A stretch of DNA of 64,000 nucleotides from a virus (IMGVR_UViG_3300011008_000016:64001-128000); one strand, 5' to 3'. Counted from the stretch's first letter, positions 16,067 through 52,288 are shown. The notes: generated from the sequence alone by a model not told the origin. Made by a program: numbers and translations.

Positions 16067-17218
16067 ATGAGTGAATTGCTTAGTGATAAAATTTTGACAA
16101 ATATGACAACTCATATTTTGAGTTCAATGAAACTCTCCGCAGAGTGTCATATTGTCGATGGGTATTTGAATCCATATGATTTTTTGAATAACGCAATCAG
16201 TAAATCAGAAAGTTATTGGATTCCGACGATTCAGAAGGCTGCAACGGATACAGATATTTATAAATTCCATTTGCTTCCGTTAAGAACTGATGAAAATGCA
16301 ACTGTTGGGTTTAAGATTACAGCGACAGTTGAGAAATATACAGAAGGTGTATTGGCTTATTCTGACAGAGAGTTACAGTCGTATACATTCCCAGATGATA
16401 CATTGAAGACCTTTTATACCGCTATAGCCACTCTTGTCCAATATTATATAAAAAATAAGAGTTGGCTTGAAGCTGAGGTGGGTACTAGTACAGTCAATGT
16501 CCCTATCTTTCATGCCGATAGATTCAAGACTGTTGATAGCGAAGGGAATGAGACGCCAATCAGTACACAGGTGGATGTCGAAACGTATCAGGAAGAACAG
16601 TCAGGGGAAGCGGCAAAGAAGAAATATGGTGATCCGATAGTGGTTATGAGACCCTCTACCCAAACAATACAAGGTGGTACGGATACATTTACACATAACG
16701 ACTCTATAACGATTGGATTACCGACAGGAGCATATACAGCTACTGTGGTGGCAGTTCCTGGTGATGGAAGTGCAATGTTTGCTTTTGATGCTCTTTATTC
16801 TGAGAAAACATTGATGATTACGGCTGGTGGTATTGCTGGTGGTTATGAAGCTTCTAATTTGAGAAGTTTTCTTCAGGGACTATTTGATCAATTTCCTGAT
16901 GATATCAAGAAGAAATGTGTTGCTTTCAGTAATGGAGATTATTTATCCATACCGACAACTGCTCAATTATTTGGATTAACTCCGGACAATGCAGCCACTA
17001 ATGGACAACTCGAATATTTTAAAGACCGTAGACATCGTATTGCAAACTTGGATGGAGACTGGTATCCGTATTGGTGTCAAGATACCAGTATCAACAATAC
17101 GTTTATCGTGTGTTCGAAAGGTGGAGATTTTGATTATGCGAATTCCAACAATGAAGATGTTGGAATACGGATTTTATTTAAGTTAAAGCTTGATTCGAAC
17201 AAGAAACTTGATGTTTAA
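16067..17218 (+). CDS. protein with C-terminal DUF6273-like domain
   Basis: GGYEASNLRSFL...QLEYFKD...YWCQD...GIRILF; late motif at 16000-16011. Confidence 0.65.
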   Translation: MSELLSDKILTNMTTHILSSMKLSAECHIVDGYLNPYDFLNNAISKSESYWIPTIQKAATDTDIYKFHLLPLRTDENATVGFKITATVEKYTEGVLAYSDRELQSYTFPDDTLKTFYTAIATLVQYYIKNKSWLEAEVGTSTVNVPIFHADRFKTVDSEGNETPISTQVDVETYQEEQSGEAAKKKYGDPIVVMRPSTQTIQGGTDTFTHNDSITIGLPTGAYTATVVAVPGDGSAMFAFDALYSEKTLMITAGGIAGGYEASNLRSFLQGLFDQFPDDIKKKCVAFSNGDYLSIPTTAQLFGLTPDNAATNGQLEYFKDRRHRIANLDGDWYPYWCQDTSINNTFIVCSKGGDFDYANSNNEDVGIRILFKLKLDSNKKLDV

Positions 17219-24685: not shown

Positions 24686-25693
24686 TTACCCACGCCTTCT
24701 AAATTCAGATTCCACCAAAGACATATCAGACCTATTGTACATTGCTGTAGTAGAAATGTCTGTATGTCCTGCAATAACTTGAACCTCCTCAAGTTTCATA
24801 CCTCGTTTCAAGAGAGTTGTAATTCTTGTTACTCGGTATCTATGAGGATGGGCGTGTTTCACGTCAGCAAGTCTTGCAATCATAGCTAATTTTCTTCTAA
24901 TAGAATCTTCTGTTACTCTTCTATATGGCTTTCTCGACGTAATAAATAATGCACTACATTTATCCTCATCACCCCGTCTTTTCAGATATTCATTAATGTA
25001 GAACATAGATTTATCCGTCAGTGGTACAATCCTATCTTTTGCACCTTTACCATGTAAAACAACATGTTTCTTTACAAAATCAATATCACTCAAGTCAGTT
25101 TTACATAGCTCTGAAACACGACACGCTGTTGAATACATAAATTCCAGTATGGCTTTATCTTTGATTGTCTTGGCTGATAACATAAGCGATTCCATTTCCC
25201 ATTCTGTAAACGGTTCCTCTTTCATGGTATCATGTTTTATCTTCGATAGTCGTTTTGCTGGACTTTTCTGTATAATATCCTCATCAGCCATCCAGTTAAA
25301 GAAAGACGTATAGATTCGTCTAATCCCATCCATGGAAGTATTTGAACCACCACCCTTCTCCTGATACATGGCTAAGAAGAATCTTAGATTTGAAGTAGTC
25401 ATATCTCTAAATGTTAGGTCTGGATAAAAGTCTATCAATTTTTGTATAAACATTTGATACCTTTCTAATGTCTTCTCTGACCTACCTTCAATCCTCTTTG
25501 TTGCTATAAATTGTTTCATCGCTCGTATATTAAAATCATCTGTAACAATAAGACCGGTCTCTTTTCGACTGATGCTATAATCGTAGCAACAACCAACGAT
25601 TACGTTCTTTGCGGATTGCATATTATCGGGTGTAATGTAATTTTGCAAACCGTTGACCAGAGAGTTAATTAATTCTCCCTCACAATCTTCCAT
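24686..25693 (-). CDS. tyrosine recombinase (XerC/D-like)
   Basis: catalytic R (TACRVSE), K (GKGAKDR), HPHRYR, AGH and TTAMY all intact; N-terminal SAM-like domain. Confidence 0.93.
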   Translation of the reverse strand: MEDCEGELINSLVNGLQNYITPDNMQSAKNVIVGCCYDYSISRKETGLIVTDDFNIRAMKQFIATKRIEGRSEKTLERYQMFIQKLIDFYPDLTFRDMTTSNLRFFLAMYQEKGGGSNTSMDGIRRIYTSFFNWMADEDIIQKSPAKRLSKIKHDTMKEEPFTEWEMESLMLSAKTIKDKAILEFMYSTACRVSELCKTDLSDIDFVKKHVVLHGKGAKDRIVPLTDKSMFYINEYLKRRGDEDKCSALFITSRKPYRRVTEDSIRRKLAMIARLADVKHAHPHRYRVTRITTLLKRGMKLEEVQVIAGHTDISTTAMYNRSDMSLVESEFRRRG

Positions 25694-25924
25694 TTACATA
25701 CCTCCTTACATTAGACCTTTATCCTCAACCCATATGTTAAATATATAATCATAAAGAAGTTATGATAAACAATGGTTTACTTGATAATGTATTTTGAGTT
25801 TAATGAAGACGCGTTAGTTCGCTAAACCCCAATTTTAGGGACATCTGCTGTAATTTTTTACCAGAATTTCCATAAGTTTCCAATTTGTAAGTTTCCCAAG
25901 TAAACTTTCGTTTAATAAGAACTA

Positions 25925-27112
25925 TCAGAAGTCATCATCAACATCTCCATCTAAATCTGTATCAATGGTTGGTGTTGGTTGCTGCTCCGATGTAGTGTTG
26001 TTTAATGAATTTATATAATCGACTATGCCAAAATCCGACTTGTAAATAACAACTGGAGTTCTGGCTAAGAAGTAATACTTCGAATATGTGAGTGTTTCAC
26101 TATCGACATCATTGGCATCTTTCCAATAGATGGATAATTTGTATTGCTCGTTGTCTTTCGGTATAAAAATGAACGGTTTCTCGTAGATATCTTCTCTCCG
26201 AAAATCTTCATTACTTATAGTAAAAACACTAAGCTTTACAATAACTCCATCTGGAACATGAATGAGTCGATTTACATTTGCGATATAATCTAGTGTACAT
26301 ATTCCATTCTTCTGTTCCTGTATCTCACCGGTATTATCGTAGATTTTATTCATTATAAATGGTAAATCTACGAGTTCATTATCAGCCAGTGTAATTTGAT
26401 AAGGGTTCGGTTTTGTCCAGAGTTTCATATTGTTTCGTTTGATAAATTCTCTGGGGTTCTCAATATCATTCTCGTTCCTATCAGAGACAACGATACGATA
26501 TAATTTATCCGTTTCTACGTTTGTAAGTCCTGTGGAATTCAGTATGTTCGTTGTAGAAATGAAACCCTCGTTGACATCATATGCCAGTATCGCGATTGTC
26601 CTAGTTGCCGAACAAGCATATTCAATCATATCATCTAAAGCTATATAATTCTTAGAACGAATCATATAATTCCCTTTGATTTTGTTGCCATTGTATATGT
26701 CGAGACCACCATATTCCCATTCACATTCTGCAAGAATGTCTCTTAGATAGCCGTTATTAAATGCACTGAACTTGTCAAACGAAACCATTCCATTGTTGAG
26801 ATTGGTAACCTCACTTTGAATCCGACTACTACTCCATGTATCACCGGAATTTGCATCCGTATCGTCTATTTCAGGGATATATGTAACTTTGTCACTACCA
26901 GATGTATCAATCCATGCTTTTGTATGTGATGGTGGTGTCTCGTCACCAACGTATATATCTCTATATTTCTTTATTTGCTCTCGCACAGCGTCACCTGCAC
27001 TTGCGTAAGTAGTTTCGCCATCTATACCAATACGGATATCGATAAGTTCTGCGTCACCTGTAGTTGAGCCATCGTTTAATGAAACAATTTGACTGATTCG
27101 GTTCCGTTCCAC
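25925..27112 (-). CDS. N-terminally truncated (silent) paralogue of tail-associated protein 34665-36050
   Basis: colinear with 34665-36050 from [12 protein letters not shown] to DGDVDDDF; no RBS before GTG 27112. Confidence 0.75.
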
Positions 27113-27115
27113 GTT

Positions 27116-27125
27116 TAAATCAGAA
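27116..27125. other. candidate recombination crossover site (copy at 35874-35883)
   Basis: TAAATCAGAA in both copies at the point where paralogue homology ends (codons S-D-L). Confidence 0.4.
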
Positions 27126-27278
27126 GTTAAGTAAATAAGAAAAATGAAGGATTAGACTTGTAATTAGAAATGTAAACTTTAGTATAGTTGGAATAAAAAT
27201 CCGTTTTGTAGGAGATTTATTACTATATTAATACGTTAGATACAAACAAACAAGTCTTCATACAAAAGGAGGAAGATT

Positions 27279-27881
27279 ATGATTCACACGAATGTTTATT
27301 TGAACCAGATGGGCAGCGACTATATGGGAGACATGGTCAAGGTTCATCCAGATGATATCAAACAGTCACATATGACACTGTTGGCTCCAGTTGGTAAGCG
27401 TCATGATGTTATTATGGGCTATGCTGAACTTTTGGAGAACGGCTTTGATCTCGGTGCATTTGAGATTAATGGGACATTCAACGACAGTATCTCGGTTGTC
27501 AGATTTTTGAAGAAATATATGCCTGTTAAGAAAGAGCAGGGAACCGAGATCGCTAATTACGTGTACATCAATATTCCTGAAAAGGATAATAAGTACTATG
27601 TTGTACGTCATGATGCAAGTAGTTGCCGTGTATATGATATCCACGTTGACTTAATCGTCAATTACACGCTCGGGAAATATATGTACGTTGATGCTATTTG
27701 CTTCCGTTTCTTACAAGTTGACCTAATAAATTCTGTAAGTATTCTTTACTCTCATGAATGACATAAGTATCATCCATATATCGACCATATAGAAGAGACC
27801 CAGCTTGGATTGCCTGCTGCTAATGATAATGCCCCCGAACTTTCAGAAGATGATCTGAAACGGATATTTGCTGACAAGTGA
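27279..27881 (+). pseudogene. early hypothetical gene interrupted by an 82-bp RT fragment (premature stop 27761)
   Basis: same frame resumes at 27789 (IEETQLGLP...FADK*) and ends at 27881 before the terminator. Confidence 0.65.
27708..27789. repeat. exact 82-bp direct copy of 29244-29325 (RT YMDD region)
   Basis: base-by-base identity. Confidence 0.95.
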
Positions 27882-27902
27882 TTTCGGCGTAACAAATGGA
27901 GG

Positions 27903-27934
27903 GGAGCAAGGTGGTATCAAAACCACCTTGCTCC
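27903..27934. terminator. bidirectional terminator
   Basis: GGAGCAAGGTGGT / ACCACCTTGCTCC. Confidence 0.7.
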
Positions 27935-27965
27935 TATAAGTAAAGAAATGAAAAAGAATCTTTTT

Positions 27966-28793
27966 TTATACCTTGGTTGTATATGCAAGACATATCCAAC
28001 CTACACCACTCTTGAGTCTACCCCATTTAGTATTTCCTACCATCTTTTCTTCGACGATAGTATACTTTTCATTCTTCTTTATAGTGGTGACTAATTTGTA
28101 GGTAGAACCTGCACCAGCACGAACATTTAGTTCCGTCGCGGTAACTTTAACAACGTAAGATGTAGATGAACCGCTAGAAACTGACGCCGTTGAGTCTTTC
28201 TTTTTTGTATCCGTACTGGTCGATGTATCACCTTTTAAGATACTTTTTATCATTGCTTTAAATGCATTCCATTCGGCATTGTTTGCACTTGCCATCTGAA
28301 GTGGACACGCTTTACGAGTAATGTCATAATGACGTAATACATAAGTATCAACCTGAGACGCTGTGATTCCAAGCATCTTGCAGATATAAGCACAGAGTTG
28401 AGCAGCAACTGCTTTTGTCGTCTCAGAGACTTTATAGTCCCCTGATGTACACATCTCAATTCCGATAGAATTTGTATTCCGACAAGAAGCATGATAATAC
28501 TTACCAGATGTACCGCAATGCCATGCCCTGTCTCGAAGTTCTACGGATTGACGGATGTGAGAATCATCAACAAAGAAATGTGCAGAAGCTCCACGCCCAC
28601 CAGAAGTGTTGAAATACCTACAATTTGCTTCGGCTGTATCTTTTGGATTCCCAGTATAATGCATTACAACATAGCCAACTGAACGACTTGCTTGGTTGGT
28701 ATAATTCCCAGCATTACACGGGATGTTGTATTCTACGGGTATTCCACCAATTACTGTGTTGGTTAAAAATCCAGTTGAAATAGTTTTAGCCAT
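27966..28793 (-). CDS. N-acetylmuramoyl-L-alanine amidase (Amidase_2 + SH3b) endolysin
   Basis: VMHYT, ASAHFFVD, AWHCG, NSIGIEMC, RHYD..RKACP; C-terminal LNVRAG...WGRLKSGVGWI. Confidence 0.92.
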   Translation of the reverse strand: MAKTISTGFLTNTVIGGIPVEYNIPCNAGNYTNQASRSVGYVVMHYTGNPKDTAEANCRYFNTSGGRGASAHFFVDDSHIRQSVELRDRAWHCGTSGKYYHASCRNTNSIGIEMCTSGDYKVSETTKAVAAQLCAYICKMLGITASQVDTYVLRHYDITRKACPLQMASANNAEWNAFKAMIKSILKGDTSTSTDTKKKDSTASVSSGSSTSYVVKVTATELNVRAGAGSTYKLVTTIKKNEKYTIVEEKMVGNTKWGRLKSGVGWICLAYTTKV

Positions 28794-28905
28794 AGAAATT
28801 ACCTCCTTTTCTTTTTTATAGCTTAAAAAGAAGAAACTGTTACATTATCGGATTAAGAACCGATGCAGTCTGCATCCATCCCGTCACCAATGTAACAGTT
28901 TCTTC

Positions 28906-30123
28906 TCAATAATACGAATCATCATAAAGCCAGTCCTCAACAAATAGTTTGTTATGTAATTCGTCCATTCGTCGAATTGTTTGGTATGCATTATACCATT
29001 GTGCATTGCCTCGCCAAGACCCGTATCCGTTACGGACATCACTATAGTGAATCTTTCCTTCTTTTACCAAGTTTGCCATTCTCTTTAATTTCCGTCTTTC
29101 ACGAACAATGTTATCGTGAGGCATATTCTTAATGATTTTACCTGTCTCTGTGAGATTGTATTTTGTTTTAAGGAATGTAAATTTCGTAAGAGGACAAATC
29201 TGCGTTTTCTTTTCATTTACATGAATACCCAAATCTGTACATATTCTTACAAGTTGACCTAATAAATTCTGTAAGTATTCTTTACTCTCATGAATGACAT
29301 AAGTATCATCCATATATCGACCATAATAATGTAAACCACGAACGATTTTGCAGTAATTATCCATTTGAGTCGGATATAATATCCCAGAGATTTGTGATAT
29401 CTGACTACCAATCCCAAGAGACTTCCGCATCATCTTCTCTCCGGTGTGGAGTTCTTTTGGAATGTTATTGTAGTATTCCAGAGAATTAAATAAATCCTCT
29501 CTACAATGACTAAACTCCTCATCGGACATATATGATACATCTATCTCAAAGGTACTAATCAAATAAGTCACAATTCCCATTGCTAACTCATCTGGTATTT
29601 TCTCATTAAAATAGTTCAAGAGTTTTTCATGGTCAATATTGTCAAAGAATTTACGGAAATCAATTAGTAATACATATCCTTTGTTTGTTCCGTGTTTGCG
29701 ATAATACTGATGTAGGTGTCGATCTAATCGTTTACGTGTAAATCCGATTCCGCGTCCTTTGATCGATGCACCGTTGTCATAAATAAGATACCTCTGCACG
29801 GACGGATTAAGAATGTAGTCACAAACTGCACGATTAATCACACGGTCAGAGATATGCAAACTTTTAACGTGGCGGCGCTTTCCACGCTCATACAATGGAA
29901 ATTCGTAAAATGGTTTTTGTACGTATGTTCCATTGGACAAAACCTTCACAGTCCTATTGATGTTTTTAAGCATTGATGCCTCATATCGCTGTACGGACTC
30001 TTTCCAATCGACTCCCTTCTGCGAATTTTTGAATGCATCATACAAATTATTTGCATCTAACAACTTAGAAAATAGAGGATATTCGATTTCGAAATCCTCT
30101 ACATTTATATTTTCAGGAGTCAT
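28906..30123 (-). CDS. brt: DGR reverse transcriptase
   Basis: ERGKRR, DRVIN, GRG, LIDFRKFFDNIDH, GIGSQISQ, YGRYMDD, FTFL; likely start ATG 30123, with 30124-30259 as the TR-RT spacer. Confidence 0.93.
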   Translation of the reverse strand: MTPENINVEDFEIEYPLFSKLLDANNLYDAFKNSQKGVDWKESVQRYEASMLKNINRTVKVLSNGTYVQKPFYEFPLYERGKRRHVKSLHISDRVINRAVCDYILNPSVQRYLIYDNGASIKGRGIGFTRKRLDRHLHQYYRKHGTNKGYVLLIDFRKFFDNIDHEKLLNYFNEKIPDELAMGIVTYLISTFEIDVSYMSDEEFSHCREDLFNSLEYYNNIPKELHTGEKMMRKSLGIGSQISQISGILYPTQMDNYCKIVRGLHYYGRYMDDTYVIHESKEYLQNLLGQLVRICTDLGIHVNEKKTQICPLTKFTFLKTKYNLTETGKIIKNMPHDNIVRERRKLKRMANLVKEGKIHYSDVRNGYGSWRGNAQWYNAYQTIRRMDELHNKLFVEDWLYDDSYY

Positions 30124-30259
30124 AGTTTTTAACCCCTTGTTTATAGCCTCAACTGTCGTAACAGGACGCATCAATGGGGTAAATTCACCTTGCGGACGGA
30201 CAAGATCTCCTTTCTTAATTCTCCATGTCGGCTCTACATAGCCTACTCTTAGCATGGTC

Positions 30260-30358
30260 TAAGAAATCGGGCGCACACCGTTCGAGTTGGACGCGTTGTT
30301 GTTATTGGAATTGCCATTGTTGTTGCAATTCGCAAAGTTCGTCGAGTTCGCAACGGCT
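30260..30358 (-). repeat. DGR template repeat (TR) with IMH*
   Basis: 13 AAC/AAT codons; matches 33325-33424 except at adenines and one indel at the 3' end. Confidence 0.95.
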
Positions 30359-30416
30359 TTTTCTTCAATGAGATCAGATCTTCCCCGAGATTTCTTACGA
30401 TATAGCTGTAAGCATC

Positions 30417-31238
30417 CTACGTAGTTGTTACCTGCTCAGAAATAATTTTTGGAGAATTGTTCACAGACGTATTAATGATGGTTTTAGCATCACAGACCTC
30501 GTCGTCATCCAATTCGGTGTATTCCCTGATGAATCTATCTGCATACGATTTATGTTGATTATTGGCTGTTGCCGTGTTTTCAGTTTCTGTTTTGTCTTTG
30601 GTATGTTTCTTTTTGCGTTTCTGTTTTTGTTGGTTATTATAATCGTACTCTTCTCGAACTTTCTTTTCAATCTTCTCTCGTTCGATTTCTCTATGAAGGT
30701 CATTCGCATAGATTTTCTTTAAGAGACGATTGTCGCTCTTTCGCCAAGCTCGAAGTAGAGCAATTTCTTTTTCGATGAGGTCAACGTAAGGTAAATATTT
30801 GTTCACGTTAATATCAATCACCGTAAGGATATATTGTAATTCTTGTAGTATCTGTTCACAACAACCAATGGCTTGAGACTGATATTTTCGTCGTTCTGTC
30901 CATTCATCCATAGTTGTTGGATATAATGTATTTGCTTGAATAATGTTTCGAATAAGAAACCTGACTTCCGACATAACCCTGACTCGCATATCGGAAATTA
31001 ACCACTCAGGGTATTCGTCAACGATATTTCGTATTCCATACTTATCAACGATTTCCAGAAACTGTTCTGTATCCTCTGGAGACATTCGATTGATTCTCGT
31101 ATAGAGTTCTGAATTACGAACTTTAGCCTTGACACCGAAATCCCTGAGTAGTAATTCCGTTATGTTCTTTCTTATCTTGTATGCCGTGTGTAAAAATTCA
31201 AGTCTTGAGGTCTTTCTCTTACTTTTAAGTACCGACAT
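30417..31238 (-). CDS. avd: Avd-like accessory protein with basic C-terminal extension
   Basis: MSVLKSKRKTSRLEF...ANTLYP...RRKYQSQAIGCC...LLRAWRKSD; directly upstream of TR; TACA-N6-TAA at 31280. Confidence 0.85.
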   Translation of the reverse strand: MSVLKSKRKTSRLEFLHTAYKIRKNITELLLRDFGVKAKVRNSELYTRINRMSPEDTEQFLEIVDKYGIRNIVDEYPEWLISDMRVRVMSEVRFLIRNIIQANTLYPTTMDEWTERRKYQSQAIGCCEQILQELQYILTVIDINVNKYLPYVDLIEKEIALLRAWRKSDNRLLKKIYANDLHREIEREKIEKKVREEYDYNNQQKQKRKKKHTKDKTETENTATANNQHKSYADRFIREYTELDDDEVCDAKTIINTSVNNSPKIISEQVTTT

Positions 31239-31317
31239 ACGATTTAGTTCCTTTCTCATAAAGATGTAAAAGATTTCATTATAAAAATGTATGTCGTTTG
31301 GAAATTAATTAGAAATA

Positions 31318-32679
31318 TTATCCAATTAACCAATAAGGCCGTAATCCTACATCAACTACGAATATATTATTATTATATATTCGTGGACAATATAATCTGG
31401 ATAATTTACCAGTTGGATATCTAATTGTAAGTCCCATATTGGATGGGTTAGAAGCAGAAGCCCCATTAGCATTATTGCTATTATACACAATGACGTTTGT
31501 ATCATTTCCACACACGCCATACTGATAACTCTCGTAATATGTGGTACCAATTATAGCAGCACTACCAACAGTTCCTGCATATGATGCTTGGTTTGATAAA
31601 ACCCATTGTTTAAATACATTTTCCGTACCTTTTTTTGCTAATCTAAAATTTGGATTAAGTCGAAATATTGGAAATTCTATATCCATCCATTCACCATCTA
31701 AATAATAAGCGTAATTGTTAGCAATGTATATATCACCAAATACATTTTTTATAGATGGTTCCCCAATTTTAAATAATACTTCACCATAATTTGGAGTTGT
31801 ATTTGGTGTTTTAAGATGAGAACCAAACTTATTACTTATTGCCGTTTCATATGCATTAAGTTTAGATGTAAATAATGGTCTATGTATTAGTGCTGTAGAT
31901 GATGTTGCCGCAACATCATCAAGTGTTGTTGTGCCACAATTAAGACAATGTCTTGGCATTATTATTGCAGCGTTTGAATTAAGCTCATTAAATCCGTTTT
32001 CTAAAAATCCACATATTACGCATTGAATTGGCTCATTAGATTTATACGTTGTAGATACAGTGATATCGAAATAATCACCAATGAATAAATCCTCAAATGT
32101 ACCATCTGATATCATTTGACAAATTTGATTAATCGTATAAACATTCGTCAAGTCTTTTCCGCGATATATTGAATTATGTGCCCCCGCATTATTTGCAACT
32201 GTAAACAGCGTTGCAGGGATATTATTCAGTTTATTTTCAGCAGTTGTAAGTCTTGTTCCATGATTTGTAATATTCCCTTCTGCTGTACTCATGCGCGTTG
32301 TTAGATTTGAGATAGACGTTCCTTGTGAACTATTAATACTTTCAGTAGAACTCATCCTCGTTTTTAAATCTGAGACATCCGATTGTAACGTTGCTATATC
32401 TTCAGAAGTATCTGGAACATCTAAATTTGCAACGGTAGTCTCCAAAGTTGTAAGGCGAGTCTTAACATTTTCATTATCCGCTTTAAAAGACTCAAATGAA
32501 GTCAGTATATTATCGGGTACAAACTCTTCTAAGAATTCTGCTTCTGTTCCAGTGTATCCATTTCTCTTAGCAACTTCATACGAAGATTCCCCTTTATCAC
32601 CACTAATCGCAGCGATTCCTTCGTATTTCCCAGTATCGGGATTCACTACTTTAAGCGTTTCTTTTCGAATAGCTAACAT
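31318..32679 (-). CDS. tail fibre / receptor-binding protein with DUF6273-like C-terminus; paralogue of the DGR target without a VR
   Basis: N-terminus nearly identical to 33316-34526; coiled coil; NAGAHNSIYRGKDL; ends GLRPYWLIG. Confidence 0.8.
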   Translation of the reverse strand: MLAIRKETLKVVNPDTGKYEGIAAISGDKGESSYEVAKRNGYTGTEAEFLEEFVPDNILTSFESFKADNENVKTRLTTLETTVANLDVPDTSEDIATLQSDVSDLKTRMSSTESINSSQGTSISNLTTRMSTAEGNITNHGTRLTTAENKLNNIPATLFTVANNAGAHNSIYRGKDLTNVYTINQICQMISDGTFEDLFIGDYFDITVSTTYKSNEPIQCVICGFLENGFNELNSNAAIIMPRHCLNCGTTTLDDVAATSSTALIHRPLFTSKLNAYETAISNKFGSHLKTPNTTPNYGEVLFKIGEPSIKNVFGDIYIANNYAYYLDGEWMDIEFPIFRLNPNFRLAKKGTENVFKQWVLSNQASYAGTVGSAAIIGTTYYESYQYGVCGNDTNVIVYNSNNANGASASNPSNMGLTIRYPTGKLSRLYCPRIYNNNIFVVDVGLRPYWLIG

Positions 32680-32710
32680 AGTTAATCTCCTTTCTTAAAT
32701 TAACAAATAA

Positions 32711-32747
32711 GAGAGTAACCGAGTATTTTTGTTACTCGGTTACTCTC
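32711..32747. terminator. hairpin / terminator
   Basis: 15-bp stem GAGAGTAACCGAGTA / TACTCGGTTACTCTC. Confidence 0.65.
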
Positions 32748-32860
32748 AAATTGCCTTATTTTATTCCGGTAAACCCCAATTTATACTCCTTAATTTTCAC
32801 TAAAAAGTTTATTGAAATCTACCTTAAAAAGAAAGGAAACTACACTTTATTCGGGTAGAA

Positions 32861-33097
32861 TTAAGCTTCCGCTTCTGCCGCATCCAAAGCTTTAAGCTGG
32901 TCCTGAAGTTCGTTAATCTCATCCCGAATTGCCTGCCGCTGTTCCATAATTGCGTTCAGATCATAAGGCATCGGTTTTCCCATTCTTTCATATTCAAGAC
33001 ACTTCGTTACTGCCCAATCACCAACACGGGAAGCAGTAGAGCCAAGGTCCACCGTCAAATCAACAATTCTCTGATTGATCCTCTGACGTTCATCCAT
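32861..33097 (-). CDS. small coiled-coil protein, possible fibre chaperone
   Basis: ATG 33097 after GGAGGT; DWAVTKCLE...PYDL...RQAIRDEINEL; lies directly after the DGR target. Confidence 0.65.
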   Translation of the reverse strand: MDERQRINQRIVDLTVDLGSTASRVGDWAVTKCLEYERMGKPMPYDLNAIMEQRQAIRDEINELQDQLKALDAAEAEA

Positions 33098-33238
33098 TTT
33101 TATTACCTCCATTAGATTTCGATTATAAATTCGACGGCGGGCTATTAACCATAGCCCGCCGTGGTTTCACAGATTATTCTTGATAACCTAATTTGCTTGG
33201 TTCATTGTTTCAATAACTCTTAATTTGTTGCTCGCAGA

Positions 33239-33309
33239 ATCGTTCACTCGCCCCACACGGGGGCGAGATTGAACGATACGGTCCCTTGTCCCTACGGGAC
33301 TGCGGGACC
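33239..33309 (-). promoter_or_regulatory. GC-rich hairpins downstream of VR/IMH (DGR target-recognition cruciforms)
   Basis: GGTCCC..GTCCC-TAC-GGGAC..GGGACC (33280-33309) and ATCGTTCA-CTCGCCCC...GGGGCGAG-TGAACGAT (33239-33277). Confidence 0.75.
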
Positions 33310-33315
33310 TAGCGA

Positions 33316-34526
33316 TCAACCGATTAAGAAATACGGGCGCACACCGTACGAGTTGGACGCGTGGCTGTAACCGGAATGGCCATGGTAGTTGCAAACCGCA
33401 AAGGTCGTCGAGTGCGCAACGGCTCCAGATGAGCAATCTTAGCCGCCGGATTCAGACGGAACAGGTTGAACTGGGTGTTATTTGCTCCGATATCATAGAA
33501 CGAAGAACTCATAACGGTAGAACCATACAAATTCACTTCACTCATCAGACGAAGCTGTAAGCTAACCCATTCCCATCCACTCGCCGCTCCAGTTAAGCCA
33601 GCACCTGCCATAGAAGCACTGTTATTAGAAGCGTTCGAAATTAAACTCTTGTAAGAGAGCAGGTGACTACTTCCAATTACATTAGCAATCGCAGTTGCAT
33701 ATGCAGGAAGCGTTGTAGAATGCATGACTGTTGACTTATATCCACCGGTCACCACATCCGAAGTATTCATCTGAGCGGTTGTCTTGAAGCAGTCCGCAGG
33801 AACAATCGTTGCATGGTGCTTGGTCAACTCCGTATCACCGTTCCCAAGGAAGGTATCAAAGTCAGCCAATACGCACTTAACAACCTCACTACCTCCAATA
33901 GAGGAGTTAATCGTTATTGTGAAAAAGTCACCGATGAATAAATCATCGAAGCTCCCGTCGGCAATCTTAGCACAAATCTGGTCAACCGTATAGATATTGG
34001 CCAGATCCTTTCCTCTAAAGATAGAGTTATGTGCACCGGCATTGCTCTCCACAGACATTCCACCAGTCTGTCCAGATAAACCAGAGATGTTACTCTCAGC
34101 CGTAGTCATCCTTGACTGTAAGCTACTGATATCAGACGTATGGGTGCCAATAGTGGTACCCTGTGTAGAAACGGTACCCTGCAATGTAGAAACATTTCCC
34201 TGAACGGTGGACATGTTGCTCTTTAACGTAGATACGTCGGAGGTCAGAGAAGATACATCCGGAATATCCAGATTGTTTACCGTAGTCTCCAACGTACTAA
34301 CACGCGTTTTCGTGTTTTCAACATCAGCCTTAAACTCCTCAAAGGACAGTACCACATTCTCAGGTACGAATTCCTCTAAGAATTCAGCCTCTGTTCCAGT
34401 AAACCCAAGCCTCTGGGCGATTTCGTAGGAAGATTCTCCTCTGTCCCCAGTGATAGCAGCGATACCTTCGTATTTGCCACTATCGGGATTTACCACTTTA
34501 AGTGTTTCCTTACGAATAGGTAACAT
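33316..34526 (-). CDS. DGR target receptor-binding protein (DUF6273/CLec-like), frameshifted at the VR 5' border
   Basis: main frame stops at 33324; the VR frame reads AVAHSTTFAVCNYHGHSGYSHASNSYGVRPYFLIG* to 33316. Confidence 0.85.
33325..33424 (-). repeat. DGR variable region (VR)
   Basis: 13 substitutions against TR, all at TR adenines. Confidence 0.95.
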
Positions 34527-34664
34527 AATTAATCTCCTTTCGATAAATTATTGATGAAGGCAACCGAGCAAAGATATTACCCGGTTACCCTCATTTTTGA
34601 AACTATAAAAGTTTCCATTTTTGGTGTCCAAGTAACCTTTACGACTTACGTGGTTAAGAACCCT

Positions 34665-36050
34665 TTAAAAATCGTCGTCAACGTCACCGTCACCATCAAC
34701 TGTAGGAACAGAAGAAGGTGTGATAGTTTCTGACTCAGACGAATTTGTCAATGCTTCCAGCTTTGCATCTATATAATCCGTCAGACCGAAGTCTGTCTTG
34801 TAGATGACCACTGGTGTCTTCGCCAAGAAGTAGTACTTCGAGTACGTATAGATTTCTTCATTGTCCTCGATATCTTCCCAATAAATGGTAATCTTGTACT
34901 TCTCCTCGTCCTTAGGGATAAAAACAAACGGCTCCCTATAGACATCCTGCTTCTTGTATGTATCATCAACTGCGTTGAAGACACTAAACTTGATAGCAAT
35001 TCCTTCCGGAATGTAGATGAGCCGCTTCCTATTCTCGATGAATTCATCCGTACAAATTGCATTCCGCCTCTCAGTCCTGTTCCCAATACCATTAATGTAT
35101 CCACTCATGATAAATGGGATTTCAGTTAATTCATTCCCAGAAAGGCTGATTGCATACGGATTTGGTGTAGACCACAGCTTTAAGTCATTGGTCTTGATGA
35201 AGTCCTTAACATTCTCAATCGTAAGATGGTTAATGTCCGTAATGGCAATACGATATTTCTTTGTCGTATCAACACTGGCGATACCATCCGAATTAAGAAT
35301 ATGGGTTGCCGAACTGAAAGTATCATCAGCGTTATACGCCAAGATACCAATTGTCCTAAGACTGGAGCACGAATATTCCACCATATCATCCAAAGTGATA
35401 TAACCCTTTGAACGAACCATGTGGTTATGTGCATTAATCTCAAGACCATTGTAAACGTCAAGTCCGCCGTACTCCCACTCGCATTCTGCAAGGATATCCC
35501 TCAGATATCCGTTCTTGAAAGCGCTGCTATCGGTGAAGGAAACCATACCATTATTGGCATTCCGCATCTCCCTCTGGATTTTCTGGCTACTCCAAGTATC
35601 CTCGTTGCTTACTTCCAAATCTTTGATTTCAGGAATATATACCATTTCATCCCGTTCAGAAGTATCGATCCAAGCCTTTGCAAATGTAGGTGGCTCATTG
35701 TCGCCGACATAGATGTCCCTGTACTTTTTGATTTGTTCACGGACAGCTTCGCCAGCGCTTGAATAGGTCGTTGTACCATCTATTCCAATACGGATATCAG
35801 CAAGTTCTGCATCACCTGTCGTTGACCCGTCAGTTAAGGATACGATCTGGCTAATCCGGTTACGCTCAACCGCTAAATCAGAATTTACCTGATCAATAAG
35901 CGAAGCTAACGTTCCAGATATTGCTTTATTCTTTTCGGTTGCATCTAATGCGTAGAAACCGACTTTATCGATGTTGGAATCATTACGAATCCGATTACCG
36001 AGACGAATCTGTTCCGTAAGACGGTCCATTAATAGATCGTGTAATCGCAT
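34665..36050 (-). CDS. tail-associated protein (full-length copy)
   Basis: 461 aa; YALDATEKN...GTLA...VNSDL then [25 protein letters not shown]; late motif at 36080-36091. Confidence 0.75.
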
Positions 36051-36188: not shown

Positions 36189-36998
36189 TCAAATCATTTT
36201 AGAAAGCGTAGCAGGTCCAACAATACCATCTGCTTTCAGACCATTCTTCTCCTGATAAGCAATGACTGCACTTCTGGTTCCTGCTCCAAAGAGTCCATCT
36301 TCCGGAACACCAACCTTCATCTGTACGAATCGTACTGTTTCTCCCTTAGAGCCAACTACGTAACGACCTGATACCTTATTGAAGGTAGCATTCAGAGAAA
36401 TCTTGTTCATGACAGCTTTGGTCTTCGGACCAAACTTACCATCTTCAACAAGAGAACCTAACTTATCAGCATTAATCGCCTTCTGGAATAACAGACAAGA
36501 GTTGGAAGCAATCGCCGCACAACTTGTCTTGAATCCAGTATCAATCTGAGCAGAACCATCTGCTGCTGTAAGGAACAGAGCCTGTTCTTTTGCACGCCTT
36601 GTCACCAGACCTGCAAGTGTATTTCCTCCAGCCTTGCAGTATTTCGGAATAGAAGCTGCAATCTGGTCAAGAGTCCTATTTGCACAAAGAGTCTTCAGAT
36701 TTCCCTGACCGCAATTAAATGCAAAAGATACCAATGCATCAAACTGATTCTGATTCAGAGAATCCGTTACCGGAACATAGACTCTGTTATTTACATAACC
36801 TTCAAATTTCTGAAGGTCTTGCTTAAGTAGATTTTCTGCCTGTGCCTGAGTAATTGTCATACCAGCCTTAACATCAGCACCTGTATGACCATAACCAATC
36901 GTGAGCACACCCGCAGAGCATTTGTAAGTTGTCAAACGGCATCCTTCACATGACATGATAAGGTTGACACCGTTCTGACTTGTTTTACGATTTGCCAT
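36189..36998 (-). CDS. GH24 lysozyme with peptidoglycan-binding domains
   Basis: EGCRLTTYKCSAGVLTIGYGHT, LNQNQFDALVSFAFN, GLVTRRAKE; DGxFGxxT and DGIVGPAT repeats. Confidence 0.92.
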   Translation of the reverse strand: MANRKTSQNGVNLIMSCEGCRLTTYKCSAGVLTIGYGHTGADVKAGMTITQAQAENLLKQDLQKFEGYVNNRVYVPVTDSLNQNQFDALVSFAFNCGQGNLKTLCANRTLDQIAASIPKYCKAGGNTLAGLVTRRAKEQALFLTAADGSAQIDTGFKTSCAAIASNSCLLFQKAINADKLGSLVEDGKFGPKTKAVMNKISLNATFNKVSGRYVVGSKGETVRFVQMKVGVPEDGLFGAGTRSAVIAYQEKNGLKADGIVGPATLSKMI

Positions 36999-46476: not shown

Positions 46477-47646
46477 ATGAGTGATCTTAATCAGGTAAGG
46501 ATTCAGGTCCTTGACGCAGAAACAGGTACAGTCATCGATAACGTTGATGTGAAGACATCTGACGGTGCTGTCTATCTTCCTGACGGAAGTACCCTTCGTA
46601 GCTGGATTGCCCAGAATGAAGAGGCGTTTTCCGAGTTTCAGCAGAAGGTAACTGCGCACCTTGCAAAGCAGCACGTTGATCCGGCTAAGGTCGATTCCCT
46701 GTTCACGGGTCTGGCTTATAACGGAAATACGGGCGTATTTACAATTACTAAGCACAACGGCGAAACCGAGGAGATTGACACCCTTCTGGAGAAGGTGACG
46801 GTCAACTTTACTCTGGTTGATGGAACCTATGATGCTGTTTCCAATCCGACTGGTGATCCGAGTGCTCAGGACTACTTCGAGGAGAGTGCTGGCTCTTACG
46901 TGGCAACCGAGGATACCGAGGTTCAGGCTGGTAAGACCTACTATGTTGACAATACTGCTCGCGAGTATCTTGCTCTGACGGCTCAGGATGGCACGGTTCA
47001 GAAGCTGGATGTCACGAAGCTGGTTGATGTCTACAAGGGCAGCAATGCAAACGGCATTACCGTTGCGGTTGCGGCTGACAAGACTATCTCTGCTTCTATC
47101 AATGACGATTCTATCAGCTATACGAAGCTTGATGCTGAACTGAAGGCTAAGGTTGATGCTGAGTACAGCCTGCCTGCGGCTACTACGAGTGAGCTTGGTG
47201 GCGTTATCGTTGGTAACGGTCTGGCTGTTGCGAACGATGGAACTATCTCTGCAAACAACATTACTTACGGCGGAAATGCGGTTTCTATGGCTCTGTCTGA
47301 GACTGAGAATACGGTTGTTACTTCTGTTTCCGGTCCTGCTGATGCTGTTGTTACCACGACTGTTGACACGGCGGTTGCTCCTCTGGTTGTTTCCGCTACG
47401 TTCAGCGGAGCTCAGTCTGCGAATGCTTCTGCTACCTATCAGTGGTATAAGAAGACCATCGGCACTGATGTTGCGTTCAGCGCTATTTCTGGTGCTACTG
47501 GTGCAACTCTGGCTGCGGCTAACATCGACGTTACTACCGAGGGAAGCACGATTTACTACTGCGTAGTTGGTGCTACCGGCACTGATGTCGTTGCTGATCC
47601 TGTAACTTCTAAGAGGGTTACGGTTGTTGTAAACGCAGCGGCTTAA
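46477..47646 (+). CDS. abundant virion decoration / fibre protein with C-terminal Ig-like domain
   Basis: strong codon bias; YSLPAATTSELGGVIVGNGL; TYQWY...AISGAT...YYCVV. Confidence 0.7.
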   Translation: MSDLNQVRIQVLDAETGTVIDNVDVKTSDGAVYLPDGSTLRSWIAQNEEAFSEFQQKVTAHLAKQHVDPAKVDSLFTGLAYNGNTGVFTITKHNGETEEIDTLLEKVTVNFTLVDGTYDAVSNPTGDPSAQDYFEESAGSYVATEDTEVQAGKTYYVDNTAREYLALTAQDGTVQKLDVTKLVDVYKGSNANGITVAVAADKTISASINDDSISYTKLDAELKAKVDAEYSLPAATTSELGGVIVGNGLAVANDGTISANNITYGGNAVSMALSETENTVVTSVSGPADAVVTTTVDTAVAPLVVSATFSGAQSANASATYQWYKKTIGTDVAFSAISGATGATLAAANIDVTTEGSTIYYCVVGATGTDVVADPVTSKRVTVVVNAAA

Positions 47647-49567: not shown

Positions 49568-52288
49568 CTATTCCCTTATAAGTTTGTAGTCCTCTGGAGT
49601 AAAGTTTTGACTCGGGACATGAACGATGAACTTATTTTCGGACGCAGAGATGACACTATCAGTGGTTTGTAGAACATTCACATTGTACATATCAAACATA
49701 GAGTTATGGGAAATTAAGAATATCTGAGTTGCATTGATAGTCTTCATATACCTCTCTATGATATCAATATACTTAGAACGTCCATATTTATCTAATGCCG
49801 TATCCATTTCATCCAGAAGCATAATGTTATAAACTTTTGACACCAATCGAATAAGGACTAATGAAAAAGCTAATGACAGCATTGCTCGTTCACCATCCGA
49901 AGCTTCTGATATATCTCCGATAATAACTCCATTTTTCTTATATGGAATGGTGAACTCTTTATCGTCAATAATAAGTTTGTCTGGGTCTTTAATCAGAGTA
50001 ATACTCGGATAAGCAACATGCATTAATTCATTAATAGAATCGATCATCTGATTTCGAATGACATCATCTATAAATTCTACAGGAATTCCTTTTGATGGTG
50101 ATACCGCATCACGAATCATCATTGCTTCTGCATATTTATCGGTCAGAAGTTTCTTCTCTTTCTCAAGAGAATCAATTGCATCAAGAGTATTTCTTAATCG
50201 ATTTAGTTCCCTATTATTGTTATCCAACTGAAGTCGGATTGAAGAAGCTTCTGATTGTATTTTGTTAAGCTGTAAGGATAGGGAATCAAAATTCTTTTTA
50301 CACTCTTCCATTGAGTTAAGTTGCTTCTGAACTTCTTGAATTTCTTTCCTACAACCTTCTAATTCTTTTGCTAACTCAATTTCAGAAGCTAAATCTTTTG
50401 AAGATTGATTAAAGCTCTCCAATTCAGATTTATTGAATTCCAAATCCTTTTGATGATGAACAATAACTTCATCGGTTTCTTTAATTGCTTGAATAGTCCT
50501 CTCTAAATCCACTTTCATAGAATCATATAGAGAGATAGTTGTTTCAAGACCGGCTAATTGATCTTTAGTTGTTTTTTGTAAAGTGAGTAATTGTACTTTA
50601 CGAACTGCTTGTTCCAAATAGGATATCATGGATGACATTAATTCTGTATTGTAAATCTGTCTATCCATTTTCAAATATTCCAACACGAATGTTTCTGGAT
50701 CAAAAATATCCTTCGGAACAAGTTTAAAGTATTCATCGTGTTTATGAAGATATTTATAGAGTTTTTCTAATGAATAATAGATTACTCTATTATCTTCTGC
50801 AACTGCAAGTTTGTCTCGTTCCACATTGAATATCTTATCAGCCTTCTTCTTATCTGCGGACATGATTTCTACACTATTCTTATAGAACTTATAATAAGGA
50901 CACATGTCATACGTAGTACAAACATACGGGTCCTTTGAAGAAATCTTTGGAATCTTAATAGAACCAGAAATTCGGTTGGTTGCCTCCATTGTTTCAATTT
51001 TTTCCAATATAGCTTGATAAGCAACATCTAATTCAATTCCAAAATGTTTATTCTGTAAGAACTTCTTCAGGATTCCCTCAATAAGACTTTGGTCTCGTAC
51101 CTCAGTAATTAAATCGGTACATAGACCTCTAAGTTCATCCAAATAAATACTTGCAGTAACAAGGTTTTCTTTCTTTTTAGTGTAATCAACCCCATCTTCT
51201 ACGTCAATGTCAGACAGTCCGACCAATTCAGCTTCAATACTGGCAAGCAATTTCTCAAGTTCTATTTTGTTTGTACTATTCTCCATTCTATGAATGGAGT
51301 CTTCCAAACTATTCTTTGAACTGAGTTTAACTTCTTTGAAATCCAGTTCTGATTTAATCGTAGACTCTAATGAATCTATCCTTAGTTGAGTAGAAATAAT
51401 GTTCTTTGTAATATCATTTTGTTCGTTTTCCAATACGGCAACGTCTTGTGAGGTTTTTCTCTTTGCTTTCAGTTTTTCTACTTGAGTGAGTAATTCTGTT
51501 ATTTTACCTTCGCATAATTCATATTGTTCATAAGCCTCCTTGTTAATATCCAAATTGGCTTTTACGGAACCTTCATTTCGTAAAACATTAGCTAAATTAT
51601 CATCTAACTCAGCAATAATATGCTCAATCTGATGAATTTGATTTACAATATCATTTTTGTCATAGGAACCGTATCTATCTAACTTATCTACAACATTCGT
51701 TAAGACAGATTTTAAATCCCTAACAACTACCGTTGCATTCTTGTAATAGGTCATATAAATATTGAGTTCAGAGAATATCTTTACAGCAAGTTTCTTTCGT
51801 TCACCCGATGTATATTCCACCATACTTTTGACACTATTACCGAGAGCCAATAATGTAAGGAATGATTCATCAATGTAGAAATATTGCTGAACCAATTCCT
51901 TAAATGTCGTTACTAATCCGCTTGGATTCAGTTCTTCCCCATTTACAGAGAAAAAGCTTTTTGTTTGTATAGAATCATCCTGTTTCCGTTGGTATATATG
52001 CATACATTTAATGATAAGATCATCCATTCTATACCGGATAATCTTTCGACCATCTCGTTTTGCAATGATTAAATCTCCATTCGCTGATTCATCGCCAGTT
52101 GCTGAATTGAATGCAAATGGATGAATACACTTCAATATGGATGACTTCCCGGAGCCACTATCTCCTACAAGTAAATAGGTTTGATGTGGCATCTCGGAAA
52201 AATCCAAATAAAGTTTATCAATATGCATCCCAGTATGAATCTTAGCGAAATTTTCAAGATATAAATCTAAAACTTCAAATTCTTGCAT
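49568..52288 (-). CDS. sbcC: SbcC/Rad50-like SMC ATPase
   Basis: GDSGSGKS, long coiled coils, ASDGE signature, LLDEMD, ISH. Confidence 0.9.
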   Translation of the reverse strand: MQEFEVLDLYLENFAKIHTGMHIDKLYLDFSEMPHQTYLLVGDSGSGKSSILKCIHPFAFNSATGDESANGDLIIAKRDGRKIIRYRMDDLIIKCMHIYQRKQDDSIQTKSFFSVNGEELNPSGLVTTFKELVQQYFYIDESFLTLLALGNSVKSMVEYTSGERKKLAVKIFSELNIYMTYYKNATVVVRDLKSVLTNVVDKLDRYGSYDKNDIVNQIHQIEHIIAELDDNLANVLRNEGSVKANLDINKEAYEQYELCEGKITELLTQVEKLKAKRKTSQDVAVLENEQNDITKNIISTQLRIDSLESTIKSELDFKEVKLSSKNSLEDSIHRMENSTNKIELEKLLASIEAELVGLSDIDVEDGVDYTKKKENLVTASIYLDELRGLCTDLITEVRDQSLIEGILKKFLQNKHFGIELDVAYQAILEKIETMEATNRISGSIKIPKISSKDPYVCTTYDMCPYYKFYKNSVEIMSADKKKADKIFNVERDKLAVAEDNRVIYYSLEKLYKYLHKHDEYFKLVPKDIFDPETFVLEYLKMDRQIYNTELMSSMISYLEQAVRKVQLLTLQKTTKDQLAGLETTISLYDSMKVDLERTIQAIKETDEVIVHHQKDLEFNKSELESFNQSSKDLASEIELAKELEGCRKEIQEVQKQLNSMEECKKNFDSLSLQLNKIQSEASSIRLQLDNNNRELNRLRNTLDAIDSLEKEKKLLTDKYAEAMMIRDAVSPSKGIPVEFIDDVIRNQMIDSINELMHVAYPSITLIKDPDKLIIDDKEFTIPYKKNGVIIGDISEASDGERAMLSLAFSLVLIRLVSKVYNIMLLDEMDTALDKYGRSKYIDIIERYMKTINATQIFLISHNSMFDMYNVNVLQTTDSVISASENKFIVHVPSQNFTPEDYKLIRE

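Follow-up and report, generated by a model that had tools for sequence, protein, structure and literature searches.

The 64,000-nucleotide stretch of viral DNA analysed here (IMGVR_UViG_3300011008_000016:64001-128000, hereafter the window) contains, between positions 24,686 and 36,050, a tyrosine recombinase gene, a start-less coding cassette (B) without ribosome-binding site (RBS), and an expressed paralogue of this cassette (gene A). The interval between B and A holds a diversity-generating retroelement (DGR), fibre-like genes and a lysin. The window corresponds to bases 64001-128000 of an IMG/VR virus record of 244,309 bp, with 37% GC and rated complete by CheckV. The record encodes a capsid protein, a prohead protease and RNA polymerase (RNAP) genes, two beta-like and one beta'-like. 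Because it encodes its own multisubunit RNAP subunits together with these two virion proteins, we assign the phage, from its gene content, to the phiKZ/AR9-type jumbo phages, in which lysogeny is not expected. The central genes and sites of the locus, all on the minus strand, are the following.

24686..25693 (-): Xer-like tyrosine recombinase, 335 aa (PF00589 5e-34 and a SAM-like N-domain).
25925..27151 (-): cassette B, a start-less alternative C-terminal coding block (open reading frame (ORF) 25925-27112; frame open from 27151).
27105..27129 (-): site S_B, TAACTTCTGATTTAAACGTGGAACG, at the 5' edge of the cassette; 21 of 25 positions agree with the consensus of related phages.
34665..36050 (-): expressed gene A, 461 aa, with a constant N-terminus, a widespread fibre motif and a C-terminal beta-sandwich (from a strong Shine-Dalgarno (SD) sequence, homologues and an AlphaFold2 (AF2) model).
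35863..35887 (-): site S_A, TAAATTCTGATTTAGCGGTTGAGCG, codons 55-63 of gene A, in the same reading frame as S_B; 22 of 25 positions agree with the consensus.
35888..36050 (-): constant part of A, the RBS-proximal 54 N-terminal codons, which would remain after a crossover.

A preliminary description of this DNA regarded ORF 24686-25693 as an intact tyrosine recombinase. The PF00589 match and the R..K..HxxR..H..Y residues, which can be read in its sequence, bear this out. It is the sole tyrosine recombinase of the 244-kb genome, present in a single copy. A search of the PDB returned XerC-like 4a8e (1.5e-27). The best NCBIfam models are XerA, XerC and XerD, all under their cut-offs (183.6 versus 220 bits, 150 versus 335 and 137 versus 330, respectively), and the enzyme is best classed as Xer-like at the family level only. 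The integron integrase model TIGR02249 reached 63 bits for a cut-off of 265. Compared with its orthologue in the related contig L025, the recombinase has a ratio of nonsynonymous to synonymous substitution rates (dN/dS) of 0.037.

Gene A is preceded by a strong SD sequence, which is absent before B. The first start-like codon of B is a GTG at 27112, and an in-frame TAA (27152-27154) is found 13 codons above it. The B protein shares 60% identity with the A protein over 387 residues (E 2e-175), the alignment starting at A residue 61 (A residues 61-446). At the DNA level, homology extends over 26006-27129 and 34764-35887 with 65% identity, and A has 55 extra N-terminal residues relative to B. ORF 25925-27112 is thus, as first described, a 5'-truncated, RBS-less paralogue of 34665-36050. 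The frame of B stays open over 1.2 kb of DNA with 37% GC, and the dN/dS of B with respect to the L025 orthologue is 0.11 (390 codons).

Searches with A gave no match in Pfam, PHROG or NCBIfam. The AF2 model has a mean pLDDT of 62 and is confident only for residues 310-400, which form the C-terminal beta-sandwich. A Foldseek search of the PDB with this model gave template modelling (TM) scores of only about 0.1 and no usable fold match. The label "tail adaptor", proposed earlier for A, therefore finds no support. In a survey of homologues, the N-terminal 166 residues of A were found ahead of a wide range of C-termini. The segment 56-112 is present in thousands of long phage proteins, and many of these have SGNH-esterase or beta-helix domains. 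Judged by its context and its homologues, A is a modular fibre-like protein.

A and B have in common a 10-mer (TTCTGATTTA; TAAATCAGAA) at 27116-27125 and 35874-35883. Checking the sequence confirmed both positions, the direct orientation on the same strand and the spacing of 8758 bp. The claim that a crossover at this place would be in frame also holds, as the frame joined at the 10-mer stays open over 455 aa. The 10-mer is the common core of the two 25-nt sites, S_A and S_B, which match at 19 of 25 positions; the same S_B variant is present in L025. S_A and S_B are the only two good matches to the consensus in the 244-kb genome, both on the same strand, and no third or inverted copy was found in the 244 kb when up to 7 mismatches were allowed, nor in the loci of related phages. 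The layout of the site resembles a recombinase core, with TAAA and TTTA inverted around an asymmetric 6-nt TTCTGA, followed by a conserved arm. The statement that homology stops at the 10-mer is correct as to the presence of the 10-mer but has little meaning alone, local alignments always ending on matched bases. The 10-mer TAAATCAGAA occurs 5 times in the window for 0.72 expected, a count reached in 0 of 100 shuffles. The preliminary description had feared chance copies, for example near 16201 and 49027. These copies exist, with a third one at 51347, but the three have dissimilar flanks, and their resemblance to the 25-nt site ends with the core.

The locus could be compared with ENA and Logan contigs of related jumbo phages, labelled L004-L040. 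Their identity to the window is 75% for the recombinase, 80% for the protease and 69-71% for the reverse transcriptase (RT). In these relatives the gene order is lysozyme, expressed gene, DGR target and fibres, XkdX, Avd-like gene, RT, amidase (with a second lysin), cassette, variable opposite-strand genes and recombinase. The layout of expressed gene, DGR and lysins, start-less cassette and recombinase is kept in at least four lineages (the window with L025; L004-7 with L012; L008, L019 and L020; L009 and L011), so that the comparison of locus order called for earlier supports a conserved module. Across the four lineages protein identity is 75% for the recombinase and about 50% for the cassette. 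L025 is collinear with the window over 24714-27530 at 76% DNA identity. The recombinase adjoins the cassette in all relatives in which this region is visible; it lies 231 bp beyond B in the window and at 0.2-1.4 kb from the cassette across loci.

Other collections were also searched. A nucleotide search of phage and plasmid collections returned zero matches, tblastn with A against phages returned a single weak partial match, and IMG/VR, scanned with A, the recombinase and a recombinase alignment, yielded zero relatives. A scan of JGI metagenomes gave nothing closer than 25%-identical recombinases. No relative of the recombinase, and thus no integrated relative, was seen in 185,579 GTDB species genomes with a pattern scan that reaches close relatives only, and no attP came to light in the phage. 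The site-bounded fragment of the clade is indexed in 156 blocks of public assemblies.

The sites are better preserved in relatives than in the window. In L012, the expressed gene and the cassette have an exact run of 25 nt in common, which gives the consensus site S, TAAATTCTGATTTACAGGTTGAACG. In L019 and L020 the exact run between the two is 31 nt. In both cases the run begins at the first base of cassette homology, and upstream of it the two loci are unrelated. Over the 330 nt that follow the site, identity is 51-52%, and the longest of the other runs has 11 nt in L012 and 6 nt in L019/L020. From these identities, we estimate the chance of such 25- and 31-nt runs at about 1e-5 and 1e-6. Of 8 diverged sequences, 6 have the site codons AAT TCT GAT TTA without any change. 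Synonymous positions vary in the GSTTGDAEL block, which is conserved to the same degree. Because no second common site, as needed for gene conversion, was found 3' of the genes, a single crossover rather than conversion is expected.

The 10-nt core is found once more, inverted, in the lysozyme gene of relatives, about 1.35 kb upstream of the expressed site (L012:6138-6147, L019:5813-5822, L020:331-340 and L023:353-362). We did not retain this copy as a site: its flanks are unlike the site, it is missing from the lysozyme gene of the window, and it is probably a codon-level coincidence.

In most relatives, the expressed gene encodes 354 aa, composed of the same N-terminus and tandem 60-aa repeats, and the C-terminus of the A/B type is found only in the start-less cassette (386-391 aa). 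The window, L014 and L015 have the A/B-type C-terminus at the expression site; other phages have it at the silent site. The expressed repeat proteins of relatives (L012:7326-8390; P0008-P0013, P0122) consist of the N-terminal platform and 2-4 tandem repeats of about 60 aa (W-x-D-T, DTWSSSKI), have no globular C-terminal domain, and vary between strains in repeat number (231, 294 and 348-354 aa). One of them, P0013, was considered as a junction protein and set aside, as it corresponds to a full-length short-repeat form.

No cassette has an SD sequence in any lineage, and the position of the called GTG start differs between lineages. For comparison, 81% of the ORFs of at least 300 aa in the genome pass our strict SD test. 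Between the cassettes of L008 and L009, dN is 0 and dS 0.043 (0 nonsynonymous changes); in the other, deeper pairs dS is saturated and dN is 0.28-0.5. By these measures, and by the dN/dS of B, the cassettes are under purifying selection. Since they are constrained yet without SD, and since the position of the GTG is not fixed, selection on these cassettes is most simply explained by translation after fusion to the platform.

Two contigs give indirect signs of exchange at the site. L021 is a whole MEGAHIT contig assembled with k=119, of 12,509 nt, found in two samples. Its first base is base 1 of the 31-nt site, and its last base is base 31 of that site. A simple repeat cannot cut a contig there, because k=119 exceeds 31 nt; the first k-mer needs two predecessors and the last k-mer two successors, so that L021 would imply an extra junction. 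By the logic of the assembler, this junction would join the cassette-upstream flank, S and the old C-terminus, beside the parental junctions, as in a circle or a tandem copy. In L024, unrelated DNA takes over after the platform and the site's first 16 nt, resulting in a 63-aa stub (L024:6952-7143). The L024 flank after the site has no match among the sequences compared in this analysis. Downstream of the stub, a perfect 8-nt hairpin (TTTTTGAC/GTCAAAAA) precedes a gene for a 173-aa fibre-like protein, whose homologue in the window is at 46477-47646 on the other strand.

A Logan contig, L040, starts at base 1 of the site on the expressed side, in the lineage with the 25-nt site, and is ambiguous; no Logan contig of this lineage starts at the site on the cassette side. 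Many other Logan contigs start exactly at the site. We rejected them as evidence: a site of 31 nt is as long as the k-mers of Logan (k=31), so that these ends are a repeat effect.

We propose a model in which the Xer-like recombinase would drive an excisive swap of the C-terminal part of a fibre-like gene, at a module conserved among these jumbo phages and partly degenerate in the window. We give this model an even chance of being correct. The fixed platform, made of a promoter, an RBS and about 55 N-terminal codons, ends in site S, with the consensus TAAATTCTGATTTACAGGTTGAACG. The cassette, which lacks promoter and RBS and encodes an alternative C-terminal part, begins with another copy of S, oriented like the first. 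We infer that the recombinase pairs both S sites and exchanges strands within their common core. The crossover would excise 8.8 kb as a circle (11.7-12.5 kb in relatives), on which the amidase, the former C-terminal part, and the DGR together with the fibre genes that it targets would leave the genome. The constant N-terminus would be left fused in frame to the cassette (455 aa here), and the lysozyme gene upstream of A would stay in place. Since there are many genome copies in an infected cell, the alternative fibre could come from a minority that has rearranged, and most packaged genomes would be unrearranged. The relatives support the cassette-swap idea more strongly than the window alone. 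A silent C-terminal cassette, a recombinase and a crossover that excises the DGR had been suggested from the window; the synteny, the exact 25-31-nt sites, the selection on the cassettes and L021 add to this suggestion, but no junction has been seen directly. That this gut jumbo phage clade uses a programmed, one-way ("somatic") excision of the 9-12.5-kb module of DGR, fibre and lysin genes in a fraction of its replicating genome copies, so as to assemble an alternative fibre gene, is put forward tentatively and may well be wrong.

Several points weigh against the excision model. In the single public run set with the window, the Logan contigs, at a depth of about 2-4, contain no joints and only unrelated loose ends, which makes this search uninformative. 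Among the assembled proteins searched, there is neither a platform-to-cassette fusion of the relatives' cassettes nor a circle-junction protein. With direct sites, the DGR, the fibre genes and the lysin would be lost with no simple flip back, which is unusual for a host-range switch. For the recombinase, S is a candidate target. A 10-nt exact run is ordinary in a 69%-identical A/B alignment, where a 14-nt run is found 89 nt further in. The window's own pair is diverged (19/25), and its present activity is less likely than the mechanism overall. The cassette of the closest relative, L025, has a 29-nt frameshifting deletion. This deletion splits the cassette (L025:516-1671, the relative of 25925-27130) into frames of 245 and 141 aa; the contig was found in 3 samples. 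Because the window sites have diverged down to a 10-nt core and the cassette of a close relative is frameshifted, activity in this particular phage is uncertain.

Other objections are best considered along with the explanations that they favour. The cassette could be a short paralogue expressed independently from an SD-less GTG, without the N-terminal anchor and for example co-assembling with the long form, the recombinase serving for genome cyclisation, multimer resolution or integration. In two diverged lineages, conservation extends to a GTG five codons ahead of NSDL and to an AT-rich leader (TTTCAAAAWTGTG) in front of this GTG, and these could constitute such a start. The Val codon of VER is GTG in the window and in L025, and GTT or ATT in other sequences. 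Moreover, 19% of the large ORFs of the genome also fail the strict SD test, purifying selection demands only translation and not fusion, and it is well established that Xer-like enzymes are often multimer resolvers. This explanation, however, leaves unaccounted for the exact identity over 25-31 nt at the 5' edge of the cassette in two lineages whose flanks are 51-52% identical, as well as the site-bounded k=119 contig L021 and the L024 stub. The start codon is not conserved in position between lineages, and an SD sequence is found in no cassette of any lineage. We consider independent expression unlikely.

Alternatively, S could be a short homology linker for general or phage-encoded homologous recombination or annealing. 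Module exchange would then be evolutionary, among co-infecting phages and genome copies, and the cassette would be a reservoir of spare parts. An identity of 25-31 nt could indeed serve homology-dependent recombination, being, as is established, about the minimum length for recombination systems, and an SbcC-like nuclease is encoded within the window. C-terminal types are mosaic among phages. In addition, A is closest to B and to L025 (dN 0.30). Because simple excision cannot yield this relationship while keeping the DGR, other recombination must also have shaped the locus. Against a mere linker, the recombinase is strongly constrained and, in at least four lineages, neighbours the cassette at every locus that shows the downstream region; a silent, intact cassette under selection implies regular use; and the site is shaped like a recombinase core, with TAAA and TTTA inverted around TTCTGA and then a conserved arm. 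We therefore judge homology-driven exchange alone to be improbable.

Finally, B could be in this phage a decaying leftover of an old duplication or transfer, with no present role and a 10-mer that is residual homology. In favour of this reading, a common 10-mer is nothing exceptional in DNA of 69% identity, and the two sites agree at 19 of 25 positions. The window also lacks the upstream GTG of other lineages, the L025 cassette carries its 29-nt deletion, and an 82-nt insertion in a flanking gene indicates local rearrangement. Against it, B has held its 1.2-kb open frame in 37% GC DNA with a dN/dS of 0.11 over 390 codons, the recombinase is intact and constrained, and both core and frame are preserved. 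We hold a decaying leftover to be very unlikely.

The excision model has parallels in known systems. In the R64 shufflon (Rci, sfx) and in the serine-invertase systems Gin (Mu), Cin (P1) and Min (p15B), reversible inversion takes place between inverted sites; Gin, Cin and Min are serine recombinases. As in these systems, C-terminal parts of an adhesin or tail fibre would be swapped here at in-frame sites, but the inversion geometry is absent. The sfx site has one well-conserved arm beside an asymmetric spacer and a poorly conserved other arm, an arrangement also seen in S. In the sigK skin element (SpoIVCA) and the nifD element (XisA), direct repeats flank a multi-kb element in a coding region; excision of a circle creates an in-frame gene in some copies, and the "germ line" copy is left intact. 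Direct repeats, a multi-kb circle and a new in-frame gene would be common to these elements and to the present locus. There, however, the gene is non-functional before excision and the recombinase is inside the element; here the upstream gene is complete, the recombinase lies outside and the genome is viral. Integrons excise cassettes in direct orientation as circles, each cassette being a whole ORF, and the vsa (HvsR) and vpma (Xer1) loci of Mycoplasma use inversion. The present locus is similar to all three in having an Xer-related tyrosine recombinase beside one expression site and a promoter-less cassette. It differs from integrons in that the integrase model remains far under its cut-off (63 versus 265 bits), no attC-like sites were seen and the cassette is a C-terminal part. 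To our knowledge, the known phage fibre switches (Gin, Cin, Min and Rin) all invert DNA.

The closest system is the Rin shufflon of Bifidobacterium prophages, in which a tyrosine recombinase lies at the end of the locus and start-less C-terminal cassettes open with the 11-bp asymmetric site rix (Mavrich et al. 2018, PMC6109161). The cassettes of Rin are several and lie in either orientation; the system acts by inversion, with isoforms seen in reads, and belongs to a temperate siphophage (PMC6109161). Both loci have a recombinase at the edge, a constant N-terminal part of a receptor-binding or fibre protein, and start-less C-terminal coding blocks with a short junction site, reduced in the window to the 10-nt core. 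Unlike Rin, the present locus has one direct cassette at 8.8-12.5 kb, an interval with a DGR and lysins, and an RNAP-encoding jumbo phage as its carrier. The shufflon-like topology suggested at first was abandoned, since both sites are on the same strand and the 244-kb genome has no inverted copy. Because inversion is not possible with such sites, the locus does not qualify as a shufflon; with one cassette in direct orientation, the predicted reaction is excision. From the arrangement of its sites, we file it as an excisive variant of recombinase-driven fibre switching.

If the excision model is correct, host-range variation would gain a new topology, that of a direct-repeat switch, carried by an RNAP-encoding jumbo phage and enclosing a DGR. 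Such a switch would amount to an integron-like or developmental-excision-like switch inside a virus and would couple two mechanisms of diversity at one locus, retroelement hypermutation and cassette swap. It would also mean that, inside a single infected cell, copies of the phage genome can become differentiated from one another. A 25-31-bp site with a 335-aa recombinase would make a compact candidate recombination tool. The model can be checked on existing reads, because the clade is abundant in public assemblies (the 156 blocks mentioned above).

The interval between the two sites and its borders contain the following genes and repeats.

27279..27881 (+): opposite-strand gene upstream of the cassette, with a strong SD (27262-27272) and an orthologue in L025.
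27966..28793 (-): N-acetylmuramoyl-L-alanine amidase with SH3 domain (lysin), inside the interval (PF01510 3e-27, PF08239; PHROG amidase/endolysin).
28906..30255 (-): DGR reverse transcriptase (PF00078; phrog_1423 6e-66).
30268..30358 (-): DGR template repeat (TR), a 91-nt repeat of the variable repeat (VR), 86% identity.
30417..31259 (-): Avd-like accessory protein, 280 aa (weak match to phrog_3206, Avd of DGR, 2e-4), conserved in relatives.
31318..32679 (-): fibre-like paralogue of the DGR target, without VR; N-terminal DNA repeats in common with 33324-34526 (D2, D4) and weak tail and fibritin PHROG matches.
33324..34526 (-): DGR target fibre-like gene, with the VR at 33334-33424.
36189..36998 (-): phage lysozyme with peptidoglycan (PG)-binding domain, just outside the interval and predicted to be retained after excision (PF00959 1e-39, PF01471); same position in relatives.

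The DGR that the sites were said to bracket is real: besides the RT, it has a 91-nt TR/VR pair (30268-30358 and 33334-33424) with 13 differences, 13 of 13 at TR adenines.

The flanks of the cassettes, in relatives the stretch between cassette and recombinase, carry opposite-strand genes that differ among otherwise near-identical relatives (131 and 165 aa in L004, 353 aa in L008, 328 aa in L009, 148 and 77 aa in L011 and 293 aa in L026). These genes belong to no Pfam family. The region around the cassettes is a hot spot of gene turnover, and its counterpart in the window is the gene at 27279-27881. There, positions 27708-27789 are an exact 82-nt copy (100%) of 29244-29325, the RT segment encoding the YMDD active-site box, placed antisense in the plus-strand gene. 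This copy is not a DGR product, because it has zero adenine changes. It brings in a TGA at 27759-27761 that cuts the gene short; on the far side of the insert the same frame continues without a stop to about 27881, which is what an in-frame insertion of about 81 nt would give.

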